From the NCBI GenBank assembly GCA_963662285.2, contig CAXXMV010000001.1:512001-576000 (forward strand): 64,000 nucleotides of DNA, in the 5' to 3' direction. The notes under the pieces are model-generated. The model ran no database searches and was not told where the DNA came from. It worked only from the letters and a program-made list of their open reading frames with translations. Position numbers and translations under genes: made by a program. Position 1 is the first letter of the stretch; the number at the start of each line of letters is the position of its first letter. The stretch is from a bacterium (GTDB taxonomy: Bacteria; Hinthialibacterota; Hinthialibacteria; Hinthialibacterales; Hinthialibacteraceae). Of this stretch, positions 42,893 through 57,984 are shown piece by piece.

Positions 42893-44557
42893 ATGAACGA
42901 ATTACTAAAGAATATGGTCCAGTTGAATCAGTTGTCTTCTGACGATGCTGAGGAATTGCAGTCGATGTTAGATGCGGATGATTCTTTAGTTATGCATTCT
43001 GAAAAGGATATTCTGCAATGGTTGGCGGTTGAGTATGGCGTTTCATATACTGATCTGGAAGACATTGAACCTGATCGTCAATTACTTACGCAGTTTCCCG
43101 CCCGCGTACTGCTCAAAGAAGAAATCCTGCCGCTCAGGCGGATTAATGGCTCCGTAGAAATCGCCACCAGCCGCTTATTCTCTACCCAGGGCATAGATAA
43201 CCTTAAATCACTAACCGGGCTTAAACTTAATCCTGTTCTGGCGCCCCGTGAAGCGATCCAACGCGAGATGAAAAAACGTCTGGGCGTTGGCGCAGATACT
43301 ATCGATTCTCTCGAAGAAGAATCATCCTTGCAGGTGGTCGATGAATCGGCTAATGAAGACGCCGATCTGGATAACGCTGCGGAAGATGCATCCATCATAC
43401 GCTTCGTGAATCAGGTGCTGAGCGACGCCATCGACCTTCGGGCTACAGATATCCACTTGGAGCCTTTCGAAGATGAACTGCGTATACGTTACCGCATCGA
43501 TGGCGTCCTGCAGGATGTTCCAGTTCCATCTCAGATCAAGCGTTTTCAACCGGCCATTGTATCCCGCGTCAAGATTCTGAGCCATCTCAATATCGCCGAG
43601 AAGCGCTTGCCTCAGGATGGACGCATTAAAATTCGCATCAAAAGCGGTGAGGTCGATGTCCGCGTATCCATTATCCCCATGCTGCATGGCGAAGCCGTGG
43701 TCTTAAGGCTGCTGCGGCAGGATTCATCTTTACTTAACATGTCTTCACTTAAGATGGATACCAGGGAATTAAATATGTTTCGCCGGGTGCTCGGTATGCC
43801 GCACGGGATTATCCTGGTTACCGGACCGACGGGAAGTGGAAAAACCACTACCCTCTATACCGCCTTAAACGAGATAAATAACTCTGACCGTAAAATCATA
43901 ACCATAGAAGACCCTATTGAGTATCAGTTAAAAGGCATCAACCAGATTCAGGTTTCCGAGAAATCAGGCTTAACTTTTGCGCGGGGGTTGCGCTCCATTC
44001 TTCGACATGATCCTGATGTTATCCTGATCGGTGAAATCCGCGACGAAGAGACTGCTCAGATTGCAGTGCAGGCCTCGCTGACCGGGCACCTGGTTTTTTC
44101 CACTCTGCATACCAACGATGCCCCCGGCGCTTTGACCCGGTTGGTGGATATGGGAATTGAATCCTACCTGGTCGCATCATCTCTCGAAGCAGTTTTGGCT
44201 CAACGCCTGGTTCGCGTACTGTGTCCTGAATGCAAAGAGTTGGATCAATCGCCCAAAACGGCAGCTGTCAAAGAAAAATTAAACCTTCCCCCCGATTTAT
44301 CCTTATACAAGCCCATCGGTTGCTCTGCATGTCGCCAGACCGGATATTTTGGACGACGCGCCGTCTTTGAGATGATGAGCATCAACAACGAAATCCGCGA
44401 ATTACTGCTTAACGAGAGTTCCACTGGATTGGTCAGAGACGCCGCCCGACGCAGCGGAATGCGTCTGCTTAATGAAGACGGCTGGCGCCTGGTTCACGAA
44501 GGCGTAACCACCCTGGATGAAGTTCTTCGCGTCACCAAGGACGAGTGCGTTGACTAG
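42893..44557 (+). CDS. gspE: Type II secretion ATPase
   Basis: LPQDGR, GPTGSGKTTT, TIEDPIE, LRHDPD, GEIRD, GHLVFSTLH and paired CxxC motifs. Confidence 0.95.
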   Translation: MNELLKNMVQLNQLSSDDAEELQSMLDADDSLVMHSEKDILQWLAVEYGVSYTDLEDIEPDRQLLTQFPARVLLKEEILPLRRINGSVEIATSRLFSTQGIDNLKSLTGLKLNPVLAPREAIQREMKKRLGVGADTIDSLEEESSLQVVDESANEDADLDNAAEDASIIRFVNQVLSDAIDLRATDIHLEPFEDELRIRYRIDGVLQDVPVPSQIKRFQPAIVSRVKILSHLNIAEKRLPQDGRIKIRIKSGEVDVRVSIIPMLHGEAVVLRLLRQDSSLLNMSSLKMDTRELNMFRRVLGMPHGIILVTGPTGSGKTTTLYTALNEINNSDRKIITIEDPIEYQLKGINQIQVSEKSGLTFARGLRSILRHDPDVILIGEIRDEETAQIAVQASLTGHLVFSTLHTNDAPGALTRLVDMGIESYLVASSLEAVLAQRLVRVLCPECKELDQSPKTAAVKEKLNLPPDLSLYKPIGCSACRQTGYFGRRAVFEMMSINNEIRELLLNESSTGLVRDAARRSGMRLLNEDGWRLVHEGVTTLDEVLRVTKDECVD

Positions 44558-44621
44558 AGCAATTCACGAAAATCAGAACTTAATTATGAGGAACACTCGA
44601 TTTTAGCTGAAAGGAAAGATC

Positions 44622-45860
44622 GTGGCTCTTTATCAATATCGCGTTATTCAATCTGATGGCCTAATGGCTGAAGGAAGCATCGAAGCCAAAGGGCGCCATG
44701 ACGCCTTGGCTCAGTTGGAATTGAAAGGCTGGCAACCTGTCAGTCTTGCAGAAAAGGAAAACGAAGCAACCAATGGAAAGAGTAAAACTTTCTCTGGCTT
44801 AAGCGGCTTCCTTAAATCATCCAAAGTATCTTTTCGCGATCTTGAAAATTTCACCCGCATGTTATCCAGTTTGCTGGCGGCAGGCGTTCCTCTAAGCCGG
44901 GCGCTAGTCGTGCTATGCAAAGAAGCCTCATCGCCTGTAGCCAAAGAAAAATGGCAGGAAATTCACGGCCTGGTTATTGATGGCATGTCATTGGCTGAAG
45001 CCATGTCTCATTCACCTGATATCTTTCCACGGGTTTACTCCGCAATGGTCCAGGCTGGTGAAACCGGCGGCTTTCTCGATTTGGTTCTGAGCCAGATATC
45101 AGATTTTCAAGTGCGCGAAAAAGATTTACGCTCCAAAGTCATGACCGCATTGATTTATCCGGCAGTTTTGCTGGTGCTGGCGTTAGCGGTGCTGGTTTTT
45201 CTATTGGTCTTTTTTATTCCCAGGTTTCAAGCAATCTTTTCCGGCTTCGGCGCCGCGCTGCCTCTGATTACCCGTATTATTGTCGGCGCCAGTGAATTTG
45301 TCCGTTCCTATGGCTTTTTTATCGCTCTTGGAATCGGCGGCGTTATTTATTTAACCAATACCTGGATTAAAACCGAAAAGGGCAAACGCTTGAAAGAAGA
45401 ATGGCTGCTTCGTCTGCCAATCATTGGACCGCTAATAGCCCGGTTCGCCATGGCCCGGTTTTGCCGTATGCTTGGTACCTTGATTGGCGCGGACGTGCCA
45501 TTGATCAATGCCCTGAACGTGGCGCGCCGTTCAATCAATAATCAGATACTGGTCGACGCAGTGGCTCAATCGATTGAAGGCGTCAAGCAGGGCGGACAAT
45601 TAGCCCACAGTCTTTCCGGATGCAAGCAGCTCTTTTCCGGCTCGGTGCTGGAGATGATCGCCGTGGCTGAAGAGTCGGGGCGGTTGGATCAAGAACTGGT
45701 GCGTCTGGCTGAAGTGACGGAACAGGAACTCGATCGGGGGCTGAAGACCGCTGTCGCGTTGACTGAACCGATTATGCTTTTTCTGATAGCAGGTTTTATC
45801 GGATTTATTTTTATCGGGATGGTGATCCCCATTTTTACTATCCAGGATTACATCAAATAG
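44622..45860 (+). CDS. gspF: Type II secretion inner-membrane platform protein
   Basis: AGETGG, ALIYP and AEESGRLD motifs; three TM segments. Confidence 0.93.
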   Translation: MALYQYRVIQSDGLMAEGSIEAKGRHDALAQLELKGWQPVSLAEKENEATNGKSKTFSGLSGFLKSSKVSFRDLENFTRMLSSLLAAGVPLSRALVVLCKEASSPVAKEKWQEIHGLVIDGMSLAEAMSHSPDIFPRVYSAMVQAGETGGFLDLVLSQISDFQVREKDLRSKVMTALIYPAVLLVLALAVLVFLLVFFIPRFQAIFSGFGAALPLITRIIVGASEFVRSYGFFIALGIGGVIYLTNTWIKTEKGKRLKEEWLLRLPIIGPLIARFAMARFCRMLGTLIGADVPLINALNVARRSINNQILVDAVAQSIEGVKQGGQLAHSLSGCKQLFSGSVLEMIAVAEESGRLDQELVRLAEVTEQELDRGLKTAVALTEPIMLFLIAGFIGFIFIGMVIPIFTIQDYIK

Positions 45861-45878
45861 GCCTATGGAGGTTTTGTC

Positions 45879-46349
45879 ATGATTTATAAAAACAATACTG
45901 TTCTAACGACCAATAAGCATCGTAACCGAGCGGCTCAAAGGGGTTTTACGCTGGTCGAAATGCTGTTAGTGCTGGTTATCCTCGCTACCCTGGCAGCTAT
46001 CGTGGTTCCCAAATTCGCCGGCAGAAGCGAGCAGGCCAAGGTTACTGCGGCGCAGACCCAGATCGCTAATTTCGAGATTGTACTCGACGCCTTCGAGGTT
46101 GATAACGGCTTCTATCCCAAGGGCAGCGATGGACTTGAGGCTCTGGTTGATAAACCAAGTAATGCCAATAACTGGCATGGACCATACCTGAAACAGGATA
46201 TTCCTCTCGACCCCTGGGGCAATGAATATGTCTATGAGAATCCGGGTAAATACAATTCCGAAGCTTATGACCTGTATTCTCTGGGACCGGATGGACGAGT
46301 GGGCGGCGATGATGATATCACTAACTGGAAGACGACCCAAAAACGCTAA
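45879..46349 (+). CDS. gspG: Major pseudopilin
   Basis: GFTLVEML prepilin motif; WHGPYL, DPWGNEY and SLGPDG..GGDDDITNW. Confidence 0.95.
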   Translation: MIYKNNTVLTTNKHRNRAAQRGFTLVEMLLVLVILATLAAIVVPKFAGRSEQAKVTAAQTQIANFEIVLDAFEVDNGFYPKGSDGLEALVDKPSNANNWHGPYLKQDIPLDPWGNEYVYENPGKYNSEAYDLYSLGPDGRVGGDDDITNWKTTQKR

Positions 46350-46863
46350 ACCGGGAACTCGCTTCGATAAGGGATTCACTCTTATCGAATTGATTCTGGT
46401 TATGGCCATGCTCTCGGCGGTTATCGCCGCATCGGCTCAATCGCTATCCCGTTTCTTCTATGGACGAGCTATTGAGGAAGAAGCCGGGCGCTTTTTGTCG
46501 ATGATTAATTACACCCGAAGCCAGGCCATATCCACCTCGGTTCCCATGCAACTATGGATCGAACCGGATCAAGGTCAATACGGCATCTCTCCATTAGAAG
46601 GTTATCAATGGGCGGCTGGCGAGTTGATTGAACTTGAGATTAACGAAGACGTCCAAATGGATTTGTCGCAGCAGGTCAATAATATGCTGGATGATTACCG
46701 GATCATTTTTTTACCGGATGGTTCATTAGACGAAACCAGCGTCAAGACGCTCAGTTTTACAAATCTGAGGAATGACTCGATCTATATAGCCCAAATCGGT
46801 TTAATGGGTGAATACCGGGTATTAGGCGAATATGATGCGCAATTGTATGGCGTTAATCAATGA
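46309..46863 (+). CDS. gspH: Minor pseudopilin (GspH-like)
   Basis: GFTLIELILV prepilin motif and IFLPDGS. Start probably ATG 46309 or 46312, inside the end of gspG. Confidence 0.75.
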   Translation: MMISLTGRRPKNAKPGTRFDKGFTLIELILVMAMLSAVIAASAQSLSRFFYGRAIEEEAGRFLSMINYTRSQAISTSVPMQLWIEPDQGQYGISPLEGYQWAAGELIELEINEDVQMDLSQQVNNMLDDYRIIFLPDGSLDETSVKTLSFTNLRNDSIYIAQIGLMGEYRVLGEYDAQLYGVNQ

Positions 46864-47269
46864 CGGCGAACCGGAACCGCTGCAAGCGGTTCCCTATAAT
46901 AGCCAACGGGGCTTCACCTTTGTTGAAGTGCTGGTTGCCATGCTATTCGTCGCCATTGTCATACCCATCGCCTTACAGGGCATCGCGCTTGCCGCCAAAT
47001 CGGGCAATATCGCTGAACGGAAAATGACTGCTTCGATATTAGCCGAAAAAAAGTTGAACGAAATCATCATCACTGAACAATGGGATGCCGGTGAAAACCA
47101 GGGAACCTTTGGCGAAGAATGGCCTGAATACTCTTGGCAATTGATTAGTGAATCCTGGAATGTTGATTCCATGACAATAATCACGCTGGTTGCATCGTTT
47201 GAAGTACAACAGAGAAAATACAGCGTTGAGATAAGCGCCTTAGTGGATGATTCGGCGGAAGAGGAATGA
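46832..47269 (+). CDS. gspI: Minor pseudopilin (GspI-like)
   Basis: GFTFVEVLVA prepilin motif; size and gene order. Confidence 0.75.
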   Translation: MMRNCMALINDGEPEPLQAVPYNSQRGFTFVEVLVAMLFVAIVIPIALQGIALAAKSGNIAERKMTASILAEKKLNEIIITEQWDAGENQGTFGEEWPEYSWQLISESWNVDSMTIITLVASFEVQQRKYSVEISALVDDSAEEE

Positions 47270-48114
47270 TGAATCGTTTACCCATTGATTCCCATAAGGA
47301 CGGCAATAGCGGCTTCACCCTCATTGAGGTGTTGGTAGCCACTGTTATGTTCGCCATCATCCTCGCCGCTTTGAATACGGTTCTATGGGCTTCTATGCAG
47401 CTGCGCGAAAAAATGGACGATCAAATAAAAGAACGCAAACCACAGAATTATTCGCTCTCAATAATCAAACGCGATCTGCTCAATATCGTCCCCCAAAACG
47501 GCGTGCTCAACGGTTCCCTGATAGGCGAGAACCAAGGCGCCATGAGTCAGCGCATGGATTATCTGGAATTCTATTCCTCCACTGGAATTATAAACGATAA
47601 TAATCCCTGGGGAGATGTCCAAAAAATTGAATACTACCTGGCTGATTATAAGATGGATCATGAGATTATTGATCCCACTCAGGGTAAAACTCTGGTTCGC
47701 GTTGTTACCCGCAATCTGCTCTCCACCGCTGTAGAGATTCCCGAAGAGCAGCCTTTGTTGAATAATATTCTCTCTTTAGAATTTAATTACTACGATGGTG
47801 AGGAATGGCTCCAAACCTGGGATTCAACCACCCAAGACCCTCCCATGCCTTTGGCCATTCATATGCGCATCGAATTCGAAGAGGAATTACCTGATGAAAA
47901 CAAGAACAATAATTTTGAAATAGATAATGAACAAATCATTCCTCCACTCGAAACCATAATACCAATTGCCGCAGTTGCTATGGCGGAAGAGGAAGAATCG
48001 ACTGAAGCAGAAGACGGCGCAACCAATCCGGAAGAAATCCCCGAAGGTAATCAGGATAATAATAGCAACGCTTCCGGTCCGGGCGGCGGGCGAGGGGAGA
48101 TGCAAAGCCAATGA
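47266..48114 (+). CDS. gspJ: Minor pseudopilin (GspJ-like)
   Basis: GFTLIEVLVA; YYDGEEWLQTWDS...PLAI C-terminal pattern; gene order. Confidence 0.8.
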   Translation: MMNRLPIDSHKDGNSGFTLIEVLVATVMFAIILAALNTVLWASMQLREKMDDQIKERKPQNYSLSIIKRDLLNIVPQNGVLNGSLIGENQGAMSQRMDYLEFYSSTGIINDNNPWGDVQKIEYYLADYKMDHEIIDPTQGKTLVRVVTRNLLSTAVEIPEEQPLLNNILSLEFNYYDGEEWLQTWDSTTQDPPMPLAIHMRIEFEEELPDENKNNNFEIDNEQIIPPLETIIPIAAVAMAEEEESTEAEDGATNPEEIPEGNQDNNSNASGPGGGRGEMQSQ

Positions 48115-49472
48115 AATACTACTCTGGCAGCATTTACCGTTCAAAACGTCTTCCCTTCCAGCAAGGATCGGTTTTGATCATTGTGCTTTGGATAACCTCC
48201 GGTCTGGTCTCTATCGCTTTGTTGTTCGGATATTCCATGACTTTGGAATACCGCGCAGCGGATAACTCACTCGCCAGTATGCAGGCTGCTCAGGCGGTCG
48301 AAAGCGCGGTGCGTTACGTAAAATACATTATCACCAACGCCGAAGAGAAGGGCAAACTGCCTGATATTGATGAATACGAAACTAAATGGGTCGAGATGAG
48401 AGAATCAACCTTCTGGCTTATTGGTCGATCCAATGGCGACGCTATGAATGACGCATTGGTCAGCGGTTTGATTTGCGAATCTTCTAAATTGAATCTCAAT
48501 ACCGCCACCCAGGAAATGCTGGAAGGTCTTCCTTATATGACGGCTGAACTGGCCGCCGCCATTATCGATTGGCGTGATGAAGATGATGATATATCAACCA
48601 ATGGCGCCGAGTCGGAATCTTATCTGATGCGTTCACCCGCTTACGAATGCAAAAACGCTCCTTTTGAAACCATAGAGGAACTGCATCTGCTGATAGGCGC
48701 TGATTGGAACATTCTCTATGGCGAAGACGCTAACCGTAATGGCATTTTGGATGCCAACGAAAACGACGGCGCTGAATCATTCCCCGAAGATAACCGGGAT
48801 GGCCGGCTCGATTGCGGCATTCTGGAATATGTCACCATTTACAGCAGCGAACCTAATAAGGACAGCGATGGCGAAGAGCGCATCAATATTAACGGCGAAG
48901 ATTCTCAAGAATTAATAACGCTGCTTCAAGAAAAGTTAGGCGAAGACGCCGCCAATGACATCCAACAAAAACTTGGCGCTGGTCAAACCGAATATCAAAG
49001 CATCCTGCAATTCTTCGTTCAAAGCGGCATGGATGCTGACGATTTCGCCCTCATAGCTGACCGCATCACCATTTCGGATGAATCCCGCAAGGGATTGGTC
49101 AATGTCAATACGGCGCCGCAAGAAGTACTGGCCTGTATTCCGGGCATTGGTACTGATAACGCATCCAGCCTGGTGGTGTACCGGCAGTCAAATCCTGAAA
49201 GCATCGACAGCGTAGCCTGGTTAACCAAGGTTTTGGATGAACAAGATGCTATAGAAGCCGGGCCGTATGTTACCGTAAATAGTTATCAATTTACCGCTGA
49301 TGTGGTCGCCGTAGGCCATGATGGAAAAGGATGCCAACGGTCAGTTTTTATCATTGATGCGAGCGGTGAAGAACCGGAAATTCGATACCGTAAGGATATG
49401 AATCGTTTAGGATGGGCTTTGGGCGAACAGACCTATAGAGAAATCGCCCTGGCGAAGGATAATCAAAAGTGA
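48111..49472 (+). CDS. gspK: Minor pseudopilin GspK
   Basis: GSVLIIVLW (no Glu5), KLNLNTA, IIDWRD and VNVNTAPQEVL motifs; acidic Ca-binding-type repeats (DANRNGILD, DNRDGRLD). Confidence 0.88.
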   Translation: MKYYSGSIYRSKRLPFQQGSVLIIVLWITSGLVSIALLFGYSMTLEYRAADNSLASMQAAQAVESAVRYVKYIITNAEEKGKLPDIDEYETKWVEMRESTFWLIGRSNGDAMNDALVSGLICESSKLNLNTATQEMLEGLPYMTAELAAAIIDWRDEDDDISTNGAESESYLMRSPAYECKNAPFETIEELHLLIGADWNILYGEDANRNGILDANENDGAESFPEDNRDGRLDCGILEYVTIYSSEPNKDSDGEERININGEDSQELITLLQEKLGEDAANDIQQKLGAGQTEYQSILQFFVQSGMDADDFALIADRITISDESRKGLVNVNTAPQEVLACIPGIGTDNASSLVVYRQSNPESIDSVAWLTKVLDEQDAIEAGPYVTVNSYQFTADVVAVGHDGKGCQRSVFIIDASGEEPEIRYRKDMNRLGWALGEQTYREIALAKDNQK

Positions 49473-50893
49473 TTGACATGAAATCTACAGGATATAAATC
49501 CCTGGTCGGGATCGCTTTGGTTGAAGGCGGCATGAATGTCGCCCTGATGGCGCGCAATGGCGGCGGCTTAAAGATGCAAAAGTGTTTTTTCGCTCCCTTG
49601 TCGCTCGATCCATTAACCAACGATCCCGAACTGGTCGGACGTGAGATTCGCGGAAAACTGGATGAACAACACATCCGTGAAAGCCGTTGCGTAGTCTGCA
49701 TTCCCTTTAACTGGATACTGACCCAACAAATAGATTTGCCGGAGTTGTCTGATAATGATGAAAAGGAATACGTTAACCTTCATGTAGAGCGCGAATTCCC
49801 CTTTCATCCAGATGACCTTTCAGTCTCTATCTCACGTTACAGTAGTATGGGAAATCAGCGGGCTACCATTGCCGCAGTACCCCATAAGCATATTTCCTCC
49901 TTAAAGAAATCTATTAAATCCGCCAGGCTCAACTTGGTTGGCGTAACGGTTGGCATCGCCTCTAGTCAGGATATCAAAGATAATAAAAGTAAGGTAATTA
50001 TCCAGGGAGAGCGCTCCGGCATCGAATTAGTGGTTGTCGCCGGCGGCGGCGTTGCGGCGATGCGGCGCCTGCATAATGTATTTGAAGAAAGCGATTCCAC
50101 TCAGGATTCTCTTGATTCGTTGACGCGAGATATCCGCATTACTCTGGGACGCCTTTCGCATGAGTTAAAAGATGAACTGCGTGAATTCTATATTGTAGGC
50201 GATGAGCGCGTCGCACAGTATCTGACCGAAAGTCTTGGCGCGTCGGCTGATCGATGGGGAATGTCGATTGCAACCGAAAATGGTCATAAAGATTATTTAT
50301 CCAGTTCTTCTATGCCCGTGCGGCTTCCTTTCGCGTCATTGCTCGATTCTCTCTCCGGCTATTTAACCAAAGGTTCCGCCATCTTCGAGTTCCTCCCGCC
50401 GCGCGTCAGCAGCCTTAAACAGATCACCCAGCGGATTGCTTCACGGGGCAACCTATGCCTGGGCGCGGCTGCCTGCGCATTTTTGATGATTACCATCGCG
50501 GCCTTTGGCTATCAGCATTTCCAACTGGCGAATCTTGATTCCCAATGGGAAGATATGGCCGACCGCGTTGCAGAAATTGAAGCGCTGCAAAATAACATTC
50601 GGCAATTCCGCTCCTGGTACGACTCTTCAGCTCCTAGTTTATCCTCCATTAGAACTTTGGTGCGTGCCTTTCCAGAGGATGGCGCCGTTTGGATCAAATC
50701 GCTCAAGATAGATGACAGGTCTCAAGTGGCCTGCACCGGATTTGCTCGAAGTAATCGAGAGTGGCTCAGCACAATTGACCGTCTACAAAAAATGGAAAGC
50801 GTCAAAGATTTTCAACTAAAACAATTTCAGGGCAAAGTACCTTTAGGCTTTATGGTTGAATATCGTTGGATTGGCGGGTATGACAATGACTAA
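49469..50893 (+). CDS. GspL/PilM-PilN-like assembly protein
   Basis: Large cytoplasmic region, FEFLPP before a single TM, then a coiled coil and VWIKSL periplasmic domain; located after gspK. Confidence 0.7.
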   Translation: MIDMKSTGYKSLVGIALVEGGMNVALMARNGGGLKMQKCFFAPLSLDPLTNDPELVGREIRGKLDEQHIRESRCVVCIPFNWILTQQIDLPELSDNDEKEYVNLHVEREFPFHPDDLSVSISRYSSMGNQRATIAAVPHKHISSLKKSIKSARLNLVGVTVGIASSQDIKDNKSKVIIQGERSGIELVVVAGGGVAAMRRLHNVFEESDSTQDSLDSLTRDIRITLGRLSHELKDELREFYIVGDERVAQYLTESLGASADRWGMSIATENGHKDYLSSSSMPVRLPFASLLDSLSGYLTKGSAIFEFLPPRVSSLKQITQRIASRGNLCLGAAACAFLMITIAAFGYQHFQLANLDSQWEDMADRVAEIEALQNNIRQFRSWYDSSAPSLSSIRTLVRAFPEDGAVWIKSLKIDDRSQVACTGFARSNREWLSTIDRLQKMESVKDFQLKQFQGKVPLGFMVEYRWIGGYDND

Positions 50894-51419
50894 TCAATCA
50901 CAACAAAAAATATTGAAAATCGTCGCCGTTCTATGCGTCTGCGCTCTGATTGGCGACCGTTTGGTTTTCTCTCCACTCTTGAGTTTATGGGATGACCGAA
51001 GCCAACAGATTCAAGAACTGAAAAAATCAGTCGCTAAAGGAACCTTGCTCCTGGAACGTGAGGATGCCTTAACCAAACAATGGTCTGATATGAAGAATAA
51101 CGCTCTTCCCAAAGAAATGTCTGCGGCCGAAAACCAGGTCATCAAGGCCATTGACCGCTGGGTGCGCGACAGCCGGGTCAATCTGGTCTCCATCAAACCA
51201 CAATGGAAACGGGAGGATGACGCCTATCAAACCTTTGAATGCCGGGCGGTTGCTCAAGGAAATATGCAAACCTTGGCGCGTTTCATTTATGAACTTGAAC
51301 AGGATGAAGGCGCCATTAAAGTGGAAAGCCTCGATATCACTTCCAACGACGACAAGGGATCATCTTTAAACATGGCGGTTCGTTTCAGCGGACTCCAGTT
51401 CTCGGAGGTTAAAAAATGA
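50880..51419 (+). CDS. GspM/PilO-like protein
   Basis: N-terminal TM, coiled coil and GNMQTLARFIYELE pattern; gene order. Confidence 0.72.
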   Translation: MTMTNQSQQKILKIVAVLCVCALIGDRLVFSPLLSLWDDRSQQIQELKKSVAKGTLLLEREDALTKQWSDMKNNALPKEMSAAENQVIKAIDRWVRDSRVNLVSIKPQWKREDDAYQTFECRAVAQGNMQTLARFIYELEQDEGAIKVESLDITSNDDKGSSLNMAVRFSGLQFSEVKK

Positions 51420-52051
51420 AACCCCATAATAACGTTATACCTGGATTCCGGTTTACGCCATGCATCTGTTTTATACTTGCGGCGCTATGTTTTACAACGA
51501 ACTCTTTCGCTGCGGAAGAGAACAAGATTACCGGTCCGGCTTTTGAAGAGTTTCAAATCGTTTTTGAAAAGAATATATTTAACCCGGACCGACGCAGCCT
51601 ATCCAAAGGGCCTATAACTATAGCGCCTCCAGCGCCAAAAGTTGAATCTAACTATCTGCTTGGCACATTGATATCCAATGACGGCGCCTATGCTTTTTTT
51701 GAAAATTCAGGACAAAGCGGCGACAGCGTCCTTAAAGTAGGCGATGACTTTTGCGGACGCAGCATCCTCTCCATCAATACCTCCTCTATCAAATTGAAAG
51801 AGGCTACTCAAACTATCGACCTTACTGTTGGTATGGGATTACAACGGATAGCGGATGGAGCATGGACCCTTGCAAATTCTCCTATAAATATTGCTCGCAA
51901 CACTAATCGTAAACCTGGTCAGGAATCACCCGATTTAAAGCAGGATAATAATGATGCATCTGAGAAATCCACACCAGATTCCGCTGATAATTCATCTAAT
52001 GATATTCTCAAAAAATTAATGGAACGAAGAAAGCAGGAGATGCAAAAATGA
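51416..52051 (+). CDS. GspC/PilP-like protein
   Basis: KNIFNPDRR, LLGT and LKVGD HR-domain-like pattern; immediately before the secretin. Confidence 0.55.
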   Translation: MKPHNNVIPGFRFTPCICFILAALCFTTNSFAAEENKITGPAFEEFQIVFEKNIFNPDRRSLSKGPITIAPPAPKVESNYLLGTLISNDGAYAFFENSGQSGDSVLKVGDDFCGRSILSINTSSIKLKEATQTIDLTVGMGLQRIADGAWTLANSPINIARNTNRKPGQESPDLKQDNNDASEKSTPDSADNSSNDILKKLMERRKQEMQK

Positions 52052-53505
52052 AAAATATATATAAAACCAATTGGCTGATCGGCGCCGTTATTCTCTCTTT
52101 AACGGCGGTCGCTCCACTCTGGGCTGAGCAGGCGCCGCAACCGGCTTCCAGCGCCATTGCCTCCTCAACCGACGAGATACTCTTGAACTTTCGCGGCGTA
52201 CCACTCGACGCAGTGCTGGATTATCTTAGTAAGGCGGCTGGATTCATCATTGTTAAAGAGGCAAATGTAGATGGTCGCGTCGATGTCTGGAGCCACCAGC
52301 CTCTAACCAAGGATGAAGCGGTTGAACTGCTTAACACCGTCTTGCACGAAAAAGGATTCTCGGCTGTACGCAATGACCGGACATTGACCATTGTTAGCCG
52401 TGACGAAGCCCATAAGAGGGATATTCCAGTAAAGACAGGCGCAAACCCTGAACTTATACCCAGGACGGATCAAATGGTTACCCAGATCATCCCGGTGCGT
52501 TATGCCGACGCCGCGCAATTGGTCGAGAATATCCAGCCGCTTATTCCTTCCTACGCCACGCTGACCTTTAACGAAAGCAGTAACGCCCTTGTTTTGACCG
52601 ATACGCAGAAAAATATTCATCGTATGGTCGAAATTATAAAGGCGCTGGATACTTCCATATCCAATATCTCTTCCGTAAGAGTGTTTCAAGTTCAGTTTGC
52701 AGACGCCACAGAACTGGTGACCGTCATTAACCAATTATTCCAGGCTGATGCTACTGCAACCGGCGGTAGAAACAACAACATGCCGCCTTTTATGAGAATG
52801 ATGGGCGGCGGTCGGGGTGGAGATCGGGGAGGCCGGGGCGGACAAAGCGGGAACGAAGAAACCAGCGAAGCCAAAAAAGCGGCGGTTCGCGTCGTCGCTG
52901 TTGCGGATGAACGCACCAATTCACTTGTTGTTACTGCTCCAGAAGAAATGATGGAAACCATTGCAATGCTCATTATGCAAATCGATACCACCATTGATGA
53001 CATCACTGAAATCCGCGTTTTTATTTTGAAATATGCCGATGCAACCGAAATGGCCGAACTCATAACCGAATTGTTCCCTGATGATTCTACGTCGCAGAAT
53101 CAATTCGCTCCCCAGTTTGGCAGAGGGGGAATGCGGGGAATGATGGGTGGCGGCCGTGGTGGTAGATCTAATACTCAGCAAACCGGAAGTGAGCGGCAAT
53201 TAAAGCAAACTACGGTGCAGGTTGTTGCCGATCCCCGCACTGATTCTGTGATTGTCAGCGCGGCCAGCGAAACCATGTATCAGATCGAGCAGATGATCAC
53301 TCAATTAGATAAAAATCCGGCTAAAAGACAGAAAGTCTTCATATACAAACTCGAATACGCCGACGTTGAAAACGTCTCCGAGATATTACGTAGCATCTTT
53401 GAAGAACAATCAACCAGTAGAAACTCTAATACCCAGAACACTAACACTCTTAGCAATCGAACAGTTAACACTGGAACCACTAACCAGGGACAGGGACGTA
53501 ATTAA
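52048..53505 (+). CDS. Secretin N-terminal half (signal peptide, N0 and repeated N domains; no secretin barrel)
   Basis: LNFRGVPL (N0); three complete YADA/FADA...xDxRTNS-type N domains plus the first half of a fourth; ends in a Thr/Asn-rich tail. Confidence 0.88.
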   Translation: MKNIYKTNWLIGAVILSLTAVAPLWAEQAPQPASSAIASSTDEILLNFRGVPLDAVLDYLSKAAGFIIVKEANVDGRVDVWSHQPLTKDEAVELLNTVLHEKGFSAVRNDRTLTIVSRDEAHKRDIPVKTGANPELIPRTDQMVTQIIPVRYADAAQLVENIQPLIPSYATLTFNESSNALVLTDTQKNIHRMVEIIKALDTSISNISSVRVFQVQFADATELVTVINQLFQADATATGGRNNNMPPFMRMMGGGRGGDRGGRGGQSGNEETSEAKKAAVRVVAVADERTNSLVVTAPEEMMETIAMLIMQIDTTIDDITEIRVFILKYADATEMAELITELFPDDSTSQNQFAPQFGRGGMRGMMGGGRGGRSNTQQTGSERQLKQTTVQVVADPRTDSVIVSAASETMYQIEQMITQLDKNPAKRQKVFIYKLEYADVENVSEILRSIFEEQSTSRNSNTQNTNTLSNRTVNTGTTNQGQGRN

Positions 53506-53528
53506 ACGGAAAAATCGAGGTGATCGTC

Positions 53529-54764
53529 ATGAAAAAATATTACATGAAAAAATATACCTGTGTTTATCTTAAACTCTTATTGTTAATCTGCATCTTGTCT
53601 TATCTTCCCGCCGAGTGCCTCGCTCAAATGCGCGGCGGCGGTGGAGGTATGGGGAACAGAGGAACCACTAGTGGATCAAGCAGCATGTATCAACGCTACT
53701 ACCAGACCAATGGCATGATCGGCGAAGCCATTATTGAAGCCGATTATGATTCCCGCTCCATCATCGTTATAACTGATGAAGACACCAACGAATATATCGG
53801 CGAGATCATCAAAAACCTGGATCGTCCCGTTCCTCAGGTCTTGATCAAGGTGGTCTTTCTTGAGGTCACCTACCGGGATGATTCCGATTTCGGCATCGAA
53901 GCCGCTTTTGATCTCAACAATAATCCCCAGGATTCCAATCTCTTCCAAACAGCTTTTGGATTGGCGGCGGAATCAAGAGGCGGGTTTTATCAACTTCTGG
54001 AAGATGACCTTAACATAACCATGCGCGCCATTGCTGAAGTCGGCAAAACCGAAATCCTGTCACGACCATCTATCCTGACCCGCAACAATCAGGAAGCCCT
54101 TATAACAGTTGGTAAAGAAGTTCCTTTCATCAACAGCAGCAGGATTACCCAGGATGGACAGACCATCAATACCGTATTGTATGAAGATATTGGAATCATT
54201 CTTAAAGTGACTCCTTTTATTACTCAGGACGGCTTGGTCGAGATGATGCTCTCTCCGGAAATATCAACTATCACCGATGAAACAGTTCCCATCTCTGATA
54301 CCGTCAACTCGCCGGTCTTCGCCAAACGCGCCGCCGATACGGTAGTGGTTACCCCAAACGGTAAAACCGTTGTAATTGGCGGCATGATGGAAGATAATAT
54401 CATCGAGACCACCACCAAGGTTCCTTTTCTTGGTGATATACCTCTATTAGGCATGGCTTTTAAACGAAACGTCAAAAAGAAAAGCAAGACTGAACTGCTT
54501 ATCTTTCTGACTCCTTATGTAGTTGAGGGGCCAGCGGAACTTATTGAAAGATCGAAAATCGAACATAGTCAATCCGAATTGGCGCCGAAAGCTTTTACCG
54601 AAGGTCAGTTAGAAAAGTATCTGGGCGAACTGCAAAGTTCCAGCGTTGCTGAACCTGTACTGGACGATGCAGTAAAACAAAACGTCCAACCAGCTAAAAT
54701 AAAAACTATAGAAGAGAAAAAGACTAAACGCGCCCGAAACAGCAAGGGACAGCCCATTAAATAA
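53529..54764 (+). CDS. gspD: Secretin C-terminal half (own signal peptide, half N domain, secretin barrel)
   Basis: GAGGTG RBS, signal peptide ending CLA-Q; LDRPVPQVLI, NNQEA, GIILKVTP, KVPFLGDIPLLG and ELLIFLTP motifs. Confidence 0.9.
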   Translation: MKKYYMKKYTCVYLKLLLLICILSYLPAECLAQMRGGGGGMGNRGTTSGSSSMYQRYYQTNGMIGEAIIEADYDSRSIIVITDEDTNEYIGEIIKNLDRPVPQVLIKVVFLEVTYRDDSDFGIEAAFDLNNNPQDSNLFQTAFGLAAESRGGFYQLLEDDLNITMRAIAEVGKTEILSRPSILTRNNQEALITVGKEVPFINSSRITQDGQTINTVLYEDIGIILKVTPFITQDGLVEMMLSPEISTITDETVPISDTVNSPVFAKRAADTVVVTPNGKTVVIGGMMEDNIIETTTKVPFLGDIPLLGMAFKRNVKKKSKTELLIFLTPYVVEGPAELIERSKIEHSQSELAPKAFTEGQLEKYLGELQSSSVAEPVLDDAVKQNVQPAKIKTIEEKKTKRARNSKGQPIK

Positions 54765-54800
54765 TAATTGATTTCTCAAAAATCAAAGACCAAAAACACT

Positions 54801-56594
54801 ATGTTACGAAAAAAGATTGTCCTCATATTTCTAGCGATTGTCTGGCTGGTTACTGTCGGATGGCAGATTCAAGAACATGAACGGTTCATGAATTCTTCGA
54901 GAGAAGGATTTCTTATCCGCGCCAGAGATATTTCCAATTCCCTGGCAACCGTGATTCGCGCTCAACGAAGATTTGGCGGAATTGTTAAAAAGTCCCGCTT
55001 GGAATCGGCGCTTAGCGATTTGGTAAAAATGGATGAACTGCTCTCCATCGCGCTGCTCAATGCCAATGGCGAAGTCGTCGCCTCCGCTGGCCGGGAGATG
55101 AATCTTGATATTAATTCTTTACCCGAAAAAGGCGAACGCTGGAATCCACAGGAAAAATCAGTTACCTATGTAAACTTAGTCGATTTAGGCGTAGATCAGG
55201 ATAAACCAGAGGGAGATTCTTCCCCCACCATTATCCTGCCTATCCCGGATATGAAACCGGGTGATATGCCTCCACGTCCACCTGATTGGTTGATTGATAG
55301 AATATCTTCCGCCTCTCCGGCTCTCTCCGCTACTCAAGTTAAGATGTTCATGGATCGTGCTGACGGGCCGCCTCATAGAGATTCGCCTCCACTACCGGAG
55401 TGGCTCAGTGAGTTGATTTCTGCTGCTACCTCTCCCTTCTCTGCTACGGATGTAGAGCAATTCATTATCCACCGCAATCCTGATCGGAGTGATGATATCT
55501 CTTCCGCTTCTATTCCCATATCCGCCTCTGGTTCCAGGCAATATTTTGGACGCGGAGGTGATGATTTTGGTCGCGGGGGCGGTGATTTTGGTCGCGGGGG
55601 TGATGATTTTAGACGCGGGGGCGGTGATTTTGGTCGCGGGGGCGGTGATGATGATAGATTCAGGTCGCGTCGTGACAGAGGGCCTCGATCCATACGTCCA
55701 TTCTGGATGGATGAAGAAACCTATAAATCAATTCTTGAAAAACAAGGATTTCATGGTTTTGTCTTGGAATTATCAACCCGCTCTTTTAATGACGCTCGTG
55801 ATAAAGATCTCTGGCTGAGGTTATCCATAGTTGGTTTCGCTCTTATCGCCATGTTGGGATTAGGATTCGCATGGCGAAACCTGATAAAATCTTCCGCCCT
55901 GCAACTACGCCTGGTTAGAACCAGCGAGATGAACGCCCATCTGCGCGAGATGAATATCGCCGCCGCCGGTTTGGCGCACGAAACACGTAATCCTCTCAAT
56001 ATCGTCCGTGGTTTAGCCCAGCTGATCGCCAAGCAAACCGATGATAATAACGACATTCACAAACAGGCGATCAACATCACTGAAGAAGTTGACAGGGTTA
56101 CCGTCCAATTGAACGATTTTATCGATTATTCCAAACCCTGCGAAGCCAAACCGATCCTTATTTCCTTCAATTCTATCGCCAAAGATGTTGAACGCGCTCT
56201 TAAAAGTGATTTAGAAGATAAAAATATTTCCCTTAAAATAACAGGACCTGAATTGATCATTGAGGCGGACGAAACCCTGCTGCGGCAATTAATATTCAAC
56301 CTGTTGCTCAACGCCATCCAGGCCGTAGACCATAATGGAACCATAAACATCACCGAAGGCATCGATTCAACGGGTTATGCGTTCTTCGCCGTGCAGGATA
56401 ATGGCTGTGGAGTTCCTCAGGAGGATTGCGATAAAATCTTTCGTCCCTACTATACTTCTAAAGTAAAAGGCGCCGGACTTGGTTTAGCTGTGGTTAACCA
56501 GATTGTGCTGGCTCATGGCTGGGAAATTGAATGCCTTCCAGTGGAAGGCAAGGGCGTACGTTTTCGCGTCGGAAATATAACTAAATCTGCTTAG
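54801..56594 (+). CDS. Sensor histidine kinase (NtrB/ZraS-type) with expanded periplasmic region
   Basis: Two TM segments; AHETRNPL H-box, NLLLNAIQA, DNGCG and GAGLGL. Confidence 0.93.
   Translation: MLRKKIVLIFLAIVWLVTVGWQIQEHERFMNSSREGFLIRARDISNSLATVIRAQRRFGGIVKKSRLESALSDLVKMDELLSIALLNANGEVVASAGREMNLDINSLPEKGERWNPQEKSVTYVNLVDLGVDQDKPEGDSSPTIILPIPDMKPGDMPPRPPDWLIDRISSASPALSATQVKMFMDRADGPPHRDSPPLPEWLSELISAATSPFSATDVEQFIIHRNPDRSDDISSASIPISASGSRQYFGRGGDDFGRGGGDFGRGGDDFRRGGGDFGRGGGDDDRFRSRRDRGPRSIRPFWMDEETYKSILEKQGFHGFVLELSTRSFNDARDKDLWLRLSIVGFALIAMLGLGFAWRNLIKSSALQLRLVRTSEMNAHLREMNIAAAGLAHETRNPLNIVRGLAQLIAKQTDDNNDIHKQAINITEEVDRVTVQLNDFIDYSKPCEAKPILISFNSIAKDVERALKSDLEDKNISLKITGPELIIEADETLLRQLIFNLLLNAIQAVDHNGTINITEGIDSTGYAFFAVQDNGCGVPQEDCDKIFRPYYTSKVKGAGLGLAVVNQIVLAHGWEIECLPVEGKGVRFRVGNITKSA
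55545..55649 (+). repeat. In-frame tandem repeat, 5 x 21 bp, encoding F(G/R)RGG(G/D)D
   Basis: Consensus TTTGGTCGCGGGGGCGGTGAT, inside the kinase gene. Confidence 0.95.
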
Positions 56595-56604
56595 GTTTTA
56601 TGAT

Positions 56605-57984
56605 ATGACCATAAATGATGTAGCAATAAAGCGAACCAAGGTTCGGGTATTAATAGTCGATGACGATCCTGGTCAACGAAGTTTGCTCGAATCATTTCTT
56701 TCCAGCCAGGGTTTTCAAATCATCCTGGCTTCTTCTGGGGAGATGGCGCTCGAATTGCTCGCTTCAGATGAAATTGATATTATGATTTCCGATGTACGCA
56801 TGCCGGGCATCTCCGGCTTGGAGGTTATGCAGCAAGCGCGCTCGATATATCCAACTCTTCCAATTCTGCTGGTAACCGCATACGCCGACATACGTGATGC
56901 GGTTACCGTTATGCGTGATGGAGCGGTTAATTATCTCGAAAAACCAATCGACCTCGATGAACTGCTCGCTTCAGTGGATAAATCCGTAGGCATTCAAGGA
57001 AAAACCAAAATAATCTTCCCTGATGAACTGGTTTTGCCCGATTACGTGATAGCTGAAAGCCTCGCTATGAGAAATGTTTTTCGCGAAGCCGCTCTGGTGG
57101 CGCCCTCCGAAAGCCGGATTCTTATTACCGGCGAAAGCGGAGTCGGCAAAGAGGTTCTAGCTGATGTGATCCACGCCTGGAGTACGCGCTCCACTAAACC
57201 TTTGATTAAAGTTAATTGCGCCGCTATTCCAGAAAATCTTCTTGAAAGTGAATTATTCGGACACGAAAAAGGTTCTTTTACCGGCGCTTCCTCTCAACGT
57301 ATAGGCCGCTTTGAAGAAGCTGGCGACGGATCGATTCTGCTTGATGAGATTGCCGAAATGTCCCCTGCTCTACAGGCCAAACTGCTTCGCATTACTCAGG
57401 AAGGGTCTTTCCAGCGTGTTGGATCAAATATAGATCGTCATACTAACGCCCGCATCCTCGCCGCCACAAACCGCAATCTTGAACAGGAAGTTGAAAAAGG
57501 CGCCTTTCGGGAAGACCTCTTCTTCCGGCTCAATGTAATGGAACTATATATCCCGCCATTGCGCGAACGCCGCGAGGATATTCTGCTGTTAGCTGCCATG
57601 TTCGCCGCCGAATTCGCCAAAGGCAAACCGCGCTTTTCCGCCTCGGTTTCGCGCTGTTTAATGGATTATCAATGGCCGGGAAATATTCGTGAACTGAGAA
57701 ATGCTATGGAACGCTCCGCTCTCATGGCGCGCGGCGAAGTTATTATTCCCGAACATCTTCCACGACGCATCCAACAATCCTTAAACCATGATGTTTCCCA
57801 ACTGAATGGTTCTTCACAGGGAAAACGCATGGAAGAGATCGAGCGGGACGCCATTCTGGAATCTCTACGCGAAAATAATTTCAACCGCACCGAAACAGCC
57901 CGAATGCTTGGCATCAGCCGTCGGGCGCTAACCTATAAACTCCAAAATTATTCCCGCCAGGGATACGCCATCGATCCCGAATAA
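56605..57984 (+). CDS. Sigma54-dependent response regulator (NtrC family)
   Basis: Receiver domain (DDD, SDVRMP, KP), GESGVGKE, GSFTGA variant of GAFTGA, LLDEI, WPGNIREL and a Fis-type HTH. Confidence 0.96.
   Translation: MTINDVAIKRTKVRVLIVDDDPGQRSLLESFLSSQGFQIILASSGEMALELLASDEIDIMISDVRMPGISGLEVMQQARSIYPTLPILLVTAYADIRDAVTVMRDGAVNYLEKPIDLDELLASVDKSVGIQGKTKIIFPDELVLPDYVIAESLAMRNVFREAALVAPSESRILITGESGVGKEVLADVIHAWSTRSTKPLIKVNCAAIPENLLESELFGHEKGSFTGASSQRIGRFEEAGDGSILLDEIAEMSPALQAKLLRITQEGSFQRVGSNIDRHTNARILAATNRNLEQEVEKGAFREDLFFRLNVMELYIPPLRERREDILLLAAMFAAEFAKGKPRFSASVSRCLMDYQWPGNIRELRNAMERSALMARGEVIIPEHLPRRIQQSLNHDVSQLNGSSQGKRMEEIERDAILESLRENNFNRTETARMLGISRRALTYKLQNYSRQGYAIDPE

Follow-up and report, generated by a model that had tools for sequence, protein, structure and literature searches.

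The stretch of DNA considered here, called the window, comprises 64,000 nucleotides (nt) from a bacterium of the lineage Hinthialibacterota (assembly GCA_963662285.2, contig CAXXMV010000001.1, positions 512,001 to 576,000 of the forward strand). It carries a gene cluster like that of a type II secretion system (T2SS), and the cluster is closed by two adjoining genes that together correspond to one secretin, GspD. T2SS secretins form rings of 12-15 subunits that serve as gated channels in the outer membrane, and secretins have been studied as single-chain protomers. The two genes, named gene 1 and gene 2 here, and their parts are the following (aa, amino acids; E, expectation value).

52048-53505, + strand: gene 1, the N-terminal secretin chain, 485 aa, stop codon TAA at 53503-53505
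52048-52125, + strand: predicted signal peptide of gene 1, residues 1-26, ending in PLWA and followed by EQ, as read from the sequence
52177-52407, + strand: N0 domain, about residues 44-120 (PF21305 on residues 46-111, E 4.4e-11, 42.9 bits)
52471-53310, + strand: three whole Secretin_N domains (PF03958 in three stretches, E 6.4e-50, 167.7 bits)
53332-53406, + strand: first half of the last N domain (strand 1, helix 1), residues 429-453, the end of the folded part
53407-53502, + strand: Ser/Thr/Asn-rich polar tail, residues 454-485
53443-53466, + strand: tail motif N-T-L-S-N-R-T-V, residues 466-473
53506-53528, + strand: spacer of 23 nt, holding the Shine-Dalgarno-like GAGGTG at 53517-53522
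53529-54764, + strand: gene 2, the C-terminal secretin chain, 411 aa, ATG at 53529
53529-53624, + strand: predicted signal peptide of gene 2, residues 1-32, ending in ECLA and followed by Q
53625-53723, + strand: Gly/Ser-rich linker of mature gene 2, residues 33-65
53724-53828, + strand: second half of the last N domain (strands 2 and 3, helix 2), residues 66-100
53829-54533, + strand: secretin barrel, residues 101-335 (PF00263 on residues 168-333, E 5.2e-47)
54534-54761, + strand: C-terminal extension, residues 336-411, two helices and then a low-complexity stretch

Gene 1 has the order of N0 and then Secretin_N repeats (PF21305, PF03958) that is a feature of T2SS secretins, and the GspD N0-N1 structures in PDB match it (for example 5wq7, E 1.9e-22). 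The whole N domains are N1 (about residues 142-205), N2 (209-314) and N3 (320-421). In both N2 and N3, helix 1 is connected to strand 2 by a loop of about 40 residues that is rich in Gly, Arg and Ser. The N-terminus is hydrophobic in 21 of the 22 gene 1 orthologues of an alignment called A2, the exception being a sequence for which a later start codon had been chosen. One orthologue (L020 1510-3300, minus strand, genome G020) is 597 aa long and has one extra whole N domain, so split secretins do not all have equally many N domains.

Gene 2 opens with a Lys-rich n-region and a Leu/Ile-rich core, followed by CLA and Q. Gln33 is invariant in the 24 sequences of the corresponding alignment A1, and Ala32 is present in at least 90% of them. 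Signal peptides were judged by a hydrophobicity rule of our own together with conservation, not by SignalP; by this rule both genes show typical n, h and c regions and are predicted to have Sec signal peptides. The linker that follows ends in a semi-conserved R/Q-x-Y...G-M-I-G stretch (conservation 0.60, against 0.42 for the linker), and its R/Q-x-Y lies at most 8 residues from strand 2 in 57 of 75 loci. Here and below, conservation is the mean share of the majority residue in the 22-24 close orthologues of A2 and A1. The barrel, likewise a feature of T2SS secretins, scores 160 bits with PF00263 (cut-off 27.5), and the T2SS secretins in PDB match gene 2 at E 1e-33 to 1e-26. An AlphaFold2 (AF2) model of gene 2 is moderate, its mean predicted local distance difference test (pLDDT) being 58.3; it has a helix at residues 7-25, disorder at 31-64 (pLDDT <50), strands at 67-72 and 77-81, a helix at 84-97 and long barrel strands from 102 on. 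A pilotin-binding S-domain was not identified in gene 2. The extreme C-terminus is basic and reads R-N-S-K-G-x-P (54735-54761), an ending common to many close relatives after a variable extension of 60 residues, which may serve in sorting or in the binding of a pilotin.

The end of gene 1 and the start of gene 2 match complementary parts of one Secretin_N model. In fragment scans, residues 430-466 of gene 1 correspond to positions 1-26 of the 69 in the profile (E 0.0011) and residues 66-103 of gene 2 to positions 32-69 (E 0.012). A phmmer search of PDB aligns residues 67-105 of gene 2 to residues 307-345 of PulD (6hcg), that is, to the second half of its N3 domain and the first barrel strand. 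The same division is seen with TIGR02517, the GspD model: gene 1 covers profile positions 1-336 (223.8 bits) and gene 2 positions 276-595 (222.6 bits), each under the cut-off of 351.35.

The GAGGTG in the spacer stands six bases 5' of the ATG of gene 2, and the frame of gene 2 differs from that of gene 1. An alternative GTG start at 53520, from the list of open reading frames (ORFs), falls within this site. GAGG or AAGG precedes the start of gene 2 in many orthologous loci, as seen by eye and uncounted. An earlier note on this DNA, made from its letters alone, had described the same anatomy: a signal peptide, N0, three N domains and the first strand and helix of a fourth in one gene, and a second signal peptide, a Gly-rich stretch, the missing half-domain and the barrel in another ORF, in a different frame and with its own GAGGTG. 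Pfam, the fragment scans and the PDB alignment agree with that description at every point that could be checked.

The position of the cut was read from single-chain relatives. Among 8000 scored candidates, 1896 proteins matched as longer relatives at E <= 1e-20, and the best 120 were analysed. These are 724-978 aa long and have N0, Secretin_N and Secretin domains; all 120 of these longer proteins match both genes, with 44-53% identity to gene 2 and 31-42% to gene 1. Those fused relatives that carry a name are labelled as GspD of Planctomycetota. One of them, P0001 (810 aa, 461 bits with TIGR02517), aligns by residues 52-454 to residues 44-453 of gene 1 (40% identity) and by residues 462-798 to residues 38-365 of gene 2 (49% identity). 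In its AF2 model (mean pLDDT 63.9), which was built from an alignment of 40 sequences, N0 is followed by four N domains, and three of these have the order strand, helix, loop (pLDDT <50), strand, strand, helix; in a Foldseek search with the model solved T2SS secretins rank first (PulD 6hcg, E 3.7e-34). The last N domain of P0001 consists of a strand (430-435), a helix (441-462), a loop (462-496, pLDDT <50), two strands (501-505, 510-515) and a helix (517-530), after which the barrel begins. The half-domain of gene 1 aligns to the first strand and helix, and that of gene 2 to the two later strands and the last helix. These alignments and the model put the cut in the barrel-proximal N domain, within the disordered loop that leads from helix 1 to strand 2, where the earlier note had placed it. 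What is left of the cut loop is the polar tail at the end of gene 1 and the Gly/Ser linker in gene 2; uncut loops of the same kind are present in N2 and N3 of gene 1. The corresponding loop holds no signal-peptide-like hydrophobic stretch in any of 119 fused relatives.

The split was then followed across genomes in two sets of loci. For the first, 40 relatives were searched with gene 2, an orthologue of which was found in most of them as an open frame of about 400 aa; 24 loci were fetched, which with that of the window makes 25. In all 25 the split is present and a gene 1 orthologue lies directly upstream. In all of them, too, gene 1 ends after the same strand and helix with a Ser/Thr/Asn-rich tail and a stop, and gene 2 opens with a hydrophobic, signal-peptide-like segment ending in A and followed by Q. 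Gene 1 is partial in the stretches fetched for two loci (L021, L026). For the second set, one genome per species was scanned, which gave 553 related stretches; the best 80 loci were examined, and the others may include fused forms. Of these 80, 79 have the split, with a gene 1 of the same ending 5' of gene 2, and the remaining one (L044) begins at a contig end. The spacers between the two genes measure 4-335 nt (median 35, 79 loci), and gene 2 is in the frame of gene 1 in 37 loci and in another frame in 42. By the hydrophobicity rule, gene 2 has a signal-peptide-like start in the window and in about 77 of the 79, in line with the signal peptide claimed in the earlier note. The two sets overlap in genomes; jointly they hold 103 gene pairs, 83 of which are distinct in the half-domain segments. 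Gene 1 lies directly 5' of gene 2 in all 104 assessable locus records, counted with the overlapping genomes.

By their phylum labels, which are the submitters' own and some of them doubtful, 41 of the best 80 loci come from Verrucomicrobiota, nine from Sumerlaeota, five from Omnitrophota, two each from Nitrospirota and Actinomycetota, and one each from Kiritimatiellota, Hydrogenedentota and Methylomirabilota; no phylum is named for 18. An orthologue at E <= 1e-60 is present in 29 of 35 genomes of the small phylum to which the window belongs. For a Limisphaerales-labelled genome (G041), 39 of 61 sampled genomes of the same order have an orthologue, and among 101 evenly drawn genomes of its whole phylum one has it (E <= 1e-60), G041 itself, which indicates that the system is confined to some orders of that phylum. 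The split secretin is thus common in some lineages and was not found in the genomes sampled from others.

In public annotation, 2671 gene 1-type proteins were counted at E <= 1e-40 among 8000 scored. They go under names such as 'hypothetical protein', 'secretin N-terminal domain-containing protein' and 'general secretion pathway protein D'. Among the best 120, with lengths of 463-601 aa, none has PF00263 on record. A close relative of gene 1 among such proteins (P0135, 58% identity) is labelled Candidatus Hinthialibacter antarcticus, others Candidatus Omnitrophota.

Some apparent fused forms did not hold up. Three long open frames in genomes of another order, with high guanine-cytosine content, proved to be chance extensions over split loci. 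A protein of 731 aa (P0117) is a wrong gene call over a split locus: it has the start of gene 1, an out-of-frame Arg-rich middle and then an intact signal peptide and barrel of gene 2, and surveys based on length would count it as a single chain. Separately, some very long open frames (2029-3966 aa) of relatives of the same class contain weaker secretin-domain matches, at E 1e-22 to 1e-35 (G030:C11:16050-17087, G032:C9:15020-15931, G029:C6:191857-192453, G033:C377:7259-8143 and G031:C148:5339-5947). Such frames may stand for giant proteins of which one part resembles a secretin, or they may be long by chance.

The two orphan halves are as well conserved as whole domains. The strand-helix of gene 1 is conserved at 0.76 and the strand-strand-helix of gene 2 at 0.77, compared with 0.66-0.77 for the halves of whole N domains; loops and tails are conserved at 0.45. 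The loops of N2 and N3 likewise show little conservation (0.45-0.56, compared with 0.66-0.81 in the structured parts). Both halves are thus under purifying selection and kept as folded parts. A short motif of the L-x-x-R type, to which N-T-L-S-N-R-T-V of the window belongs, was counted in the last 50 residues of gene 1 and occurs in 63 of 79 tails against 11.6 in shuffled ones, with about three of the matches, at the end of the tail, looking like chance. In the same loop of the fused relatives it stands at chance (15 of 119 against 15.3). Among the split loci, those labelled Sumerlaeota and some others lack it. Covariation between the halves was tried as evidence and rejected: in the 103 pairs (83 distinct) the pattern follows clades, the covarying pair being an aromatic-versus-Asn position of gene 1 and a non-Pro-versus-Pro position of gene 2.

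In a FastTree phylogeny of 200 barrel regions, the 80 split forms and P0117, there counted as fused, stand on one side of a branch with support 100, so a single event suffices to explain them. The tree is unrooted and has no outgroup. Fission is the parsimonious direction of this event because the solved T2SS secretins and the Planctomycetota-labelled relatives are single-chain. The split is a real and old design and not a broken gene, since the same cut has been kept in many distantly related bacteria.

We consider it quite probable that the two genes encode a functional two-chain GspD secretin of a T2SS, derived from an old gene fission. The ancestor would have been a single chain with N0, four N domains and a barrel, which was cut in its barrel-proximal N domain, within the disordered loop joining helix 1 to strand 2, and the downstream piece would then have acquired a ribosome-binding site and a Sec signal peptide of its own. 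At present, one transcript would presumably yield both chains and Sec would export each of them. Once both are in the periplasm, the strand 1 and helix 1 that end chain 1 would pack on strands 2 and 3 and helix 2 of chain 2, so that a whole N domain is restored in trans and one pair of chains, joined 1:1, equals one classical protomer. Such pairs would build the usual ring. Chain 2 would supply its barrel and gate in the outer membrane, and chain 1 the rings that extend through the periplasm to the inner-membrane platform.

Several points weigh against a two-chain secretin of this kind, or qualify it. Both half-domain fragment matches (19.6 and 16.3 bits) are under the Pfam cut-off of 28.2. 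That the halves bind each other as one domain is likely, and this is something that we infer. The direction, fission rather than fusion, is also one that we infer, by parsimony on an unrooted tree. Two loci (L069, L103) fail the signal-peptide rule, with a hydrophobic stretch visible by eye. In genome G016, gene 1 (L030) has a frame disruption with four in-frame stops in the N3 loop region, and in genome G021, gene 2 (L025) is frameshifted and lies in two frames; the damage in both can be decay of the locus in some genomes or an assembly error, and the former gene was left out of A2 and the latter out of A1. A prediction of the complex of gene 2 residues 34-125 with gene 1 residues 425-485, made with alignments, gave an ipSAE of 0.29 in both runs (mark 0.32, without controls) and weighs neither way.

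Among the alternatives, the one that survives best, and that we regard as rather unlikely, is that of two cooperating proteins that do not complement one domain. Gene 2 would then be a short secretin with its strand-strand-helix stub as a reduced ring, and gene 1 a separate periplasmic ring or adaptor protein that docks by other contacts, such as its tail motif, or only for a time. Secretins with few N domains are indeed among the solved structures (phage pIV 7ofh, RcpA 8odn), long disordered stretches separate the two halves (the polar tail in gene 1, the linker in gene 2), and the tail motif is specific to a part of the split clade, being at chance in the fused relatives. However, the motif is absent in Sumerlaeota-labelled and other split loci and thus is not a general docking device. 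The orphan strand-helix and the orphan strand-strand-helix would each expose a hydrophobic face if they did not pair, and the two are conserved like whole domains and fit complementary parts of one model.

A stronger version of the two-chain secretin, in which the cut itself is an adaptation, seems to us distinctly unlikely. The chains would be exported and assembled separately and dock by half-domain complementation, and the vestibule formed by chain 1 could be added or released after the pore has been inserted. The tail motif N-x-L-x-N-R would help docking in some lineages, and the purpose would be, for example, passage past the peptidoglycan layer or the coupling of one pore to a platform when needed. 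The 'detachable vestibule' that the earlier note had proposed belongs here and is speculation.

It is very improbable that gene 1 serves another machine, either as the partner of another secretin or as a free periplasmic protein, its adjacency to gene 2 being merely historical. The genome has at least eight secretin-like matches, but gene 1 stands directly 5' of gene 2 wherever the order could be assessed, and both genes are collinear with one fused orthologue. Programmed recoding, by which a frameshift or read-through would join the two ORFs into one chain, is, judged by the layout of the loci, still less credible: the genes are adjacent on the same strand, as it would require, yet the frame relation, the spacers (4-335 nt) and the stop codons vary between loci, and an internal signal peptide makes no sense in a single chain. 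A frameshifted single-chain gspD, whether a broken gene or an error of assembly or sequencing, is suggested by ORFs 23 nt apart in different frames and by database gene calls that wrongly fuse the pair (P0117), and it is refuted by the comparative data, namely the split across dozens of genera with varied spacers and frames, the conserved second signal peptide that 119 fused relatives lack, the purifying selection on both parts and a junction (53200-53900) that is identical in two Logan contig sets, which come from two runs of one sample, possibly the source of the window, and so agree with it without being independent of it. Error, recoding and an unrelated role of gene 1 are improbable even when taken together. 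Among the findings that would overturn it, the earlier note had named an assembly error, a gene 2 with no predicted signal peptide and relatives that are all fused, and the split withstood all three. An assembly error and fused relatives are taken up here. The reads assembled in Logan and the 25 of 25 and 79 of 80 loci speak against the former; as to the latter, the relatives are split, and the fused forms that exist are Planctomycetota-labelled where named.

The other genes of the cluster, identified with Pfam unless stated otherwise, and the genes that flank the pair are as follows.

42893-44557, + strand: GspE (T2SSE, E 7.7e-139)
44622-45860, + strand: GspF (T2SSF, E 2.3e-56)
45879-46349, + strand: GspG (T2SSG, E 2.8e-35)
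between GspG and 49472, + strand: GspH-like pseudopilin (GspH, E 3.7e-4)
between the GspH-like ORF and GspJ, + strand: minor pseudopilin (I-type)
upstream of GspK, + strand: GspJ (T2SSJ, E 1.5e-13)
48111-49472, + strand: GspK (T2SSK, E 5.9e-9)
within 49469-51419, + strand: PilN-like protein, 474 aa (PilN, E 3.6e-4, under the Pfam cut-off)
within 49469-51419, + strand: GspM/PilO-like protein, 187 aa (T2SSM_b, E 1.9e-6)
51416-52051, + strand: 211-aa protein with a hydrophobic N-terminus, directly 5' of gene 1
54768-56594, + strand: histidine kinase, 3' of gene 2
56605-57984, + strand: sigma-54-type response regulator, 3' of the histidine kinase

The T2SS-like cluster is complete from GspE to GspM and lies on the + strand, with gene 1 and gene 2 at its end. 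The two genes are therefore encoded together with GspE, GspF and the pseudopilins GspG-K (ORFs at 42893-49472), as T2SS secretins are. No terminator-like site was found within 51300-55000, and promoter-like sites in the same interval show no excess over shuffled sequences. The 211-aa protein has no family match in Pfam or NCBIfam, and we can only guess that it is a GspC/PilP-like adaptor, the partner of the N0 domain. In the Limisphaerales-labelled order, gene 1 of two loci (L114, 65-946, and L115, 137-892, in reverse-complemented coordinates, with synteny judged by eye) is likewise preceded by such a protein without a Pfam or NCBIfam match. The three proteins measure about 210-290 aa, and an N-I-F-N motif is common to all of them. 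A kinase-like ORF stands 3' of gene 2 also in two other loci (L002, L003); a regulatory link of the kinase and response regulator to the split secretin would be a guess. Near-identical repeats of the type G-R-G-G-D-D-F occur in the histidine kinase at about residues 265-310, in a Gly/Arg-rich style like that of the N-domain loops of gene 1.

What makes this locus useful is that it offers a natural and widely conserved cut exactly between the stack of N domains and the barrel-proximal half-domain. It is debated how the barrel can arrive in the outer membrane when the N domains remain joined to the inner-membrane platform. The split provides a ready-made system in which to ask if the N-module and the C-module must be covalently linked, in what order they are assembled and if a Secretin_N fold can be rebuilt from two chains. 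There is also a practical side. Each half is under the GspD equivalog cut-off and so is missed by family models, and genome surveys of the T2SS in these phyla can therefore report too few secretins or list them as partial.

The closest known system is the single-chain GspD (TIGR02517; GspD, PulD and XcpQ, with structures 5wq7, 5wq8, 5wln and 6hcg), which likewise consists of N0, Secretin_N repeats and a PF00263 barrel and, like the pair in the window, is found in a GspE-to-GspM cluster. In the alignment of gene 1 to 5wq7, a polar loop joins helix 1 to strand 2 of the barrel-proximal N domain of 5wq7 where the cut lies in the window. The differences are that the window has two polypeptides, each with a predicted signal peptide, whereas all of the T2SS secretin chains matched in PDB are single polypeptides; that neither window chain reaches the TIGR02517 equivalog score (>= 351.35); and that the pair has one N domain more than the solved GspD proteins (N1-N4), with loops of about 40 residues in N2-N4. 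By descent the pair clearly belongs to the GspD family. Its nearest fused relatives found are the Planctomycetota-labelled GspD proteins (Phycisphaerae, Sedimentisphaerales and Planctomycetales; P0001), which have the same layout of N0, four N domains and barrel, with long loops. They differ in being one chain, in the lack of a hydrophobic stretch in the loop (0 of 119) and in having no tail motif beyond chance. The statement of the earlier note that GspD is normally one chain is right, and yet split secretins have precedents (RhcC1/RhcC2 and GspD/GspDN).

The first precedent is the rhizobial type of type III secretion system (T3SS). According to the portion of the source that was available, the N- and C-terminal parts of the secretin are separate genes there, RhcC1/NolW and RhcC2 (HrcIIC1/HrcIIC2 in Pseudomonas syringae), and the significance of this is described as unknown (PMC3574062). 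In the accessible text of another paper, which cites Abby and Rocha, RhcC2 is read as a piece of a Tad locus that came in through partial homologous replacement (PMC4311626). As far as these descriptions go, the Rhc-type split resembles that of the window in having the N-part and the C-part in separate genes. It differs in that its genes are apart or separated by another gene, whereas those of the window adjoin, and in that RhcC2 is read as Tad-derived, whereas both halves in the window are collinear with one orthologue. The Rhc-type split also belongs to a T3SS, whereas the window cluster is T2SS-like and its best NCBIfam model is GspD, with SctC far weaker.

The literature searched, which did not cover supplements or most subscription journals, yielded no description of a bacterial T2SS whose GspD is split. 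The 'gene fission' of Denise et al. 2019 (PMC6668835) refers, in the excerpt available, to TadB/TadC, and the available part of a preprint on giant genes of Omnitrophota (10.1101/2023.11.21.568195) has gspD near such genes and mentions no split. Split secretins are thus already known from the Rhc-type T3SS and from mitochondrial relics of the T2SS, and the bacterial T2SS case is unreported in the literature searched.

The mitochondrial T2SS-derived system of some protists is the second precedent. There, as described in those sections of the paper that were available, GspD, GspDL and GspDN1-3 are several polypeptides, of which GspDN3 corresponds to the N-terminal half of a Secretin_N domain and GspDN2 to the C-terminal half, and the bacterial origin is left unresolved by the authors (PMC8134430). 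On that partial description, the mitochondrial pieces differ from the window chains in being encoded by eukaryotic nuclear genes and in having no N0. If the cut were an adaptation, the mitochondrial multi-piece GspD would be the same solution, and it might descend from a split bacterial system. The likeness, again by the published description as far as it was available, is one of design: GspDN2, GspDN3 and the two window chains each carry half of a Secretin_N domain, and with the two-gene secretin the mitochondrial GspD pieces gain a parallel among bacteria.

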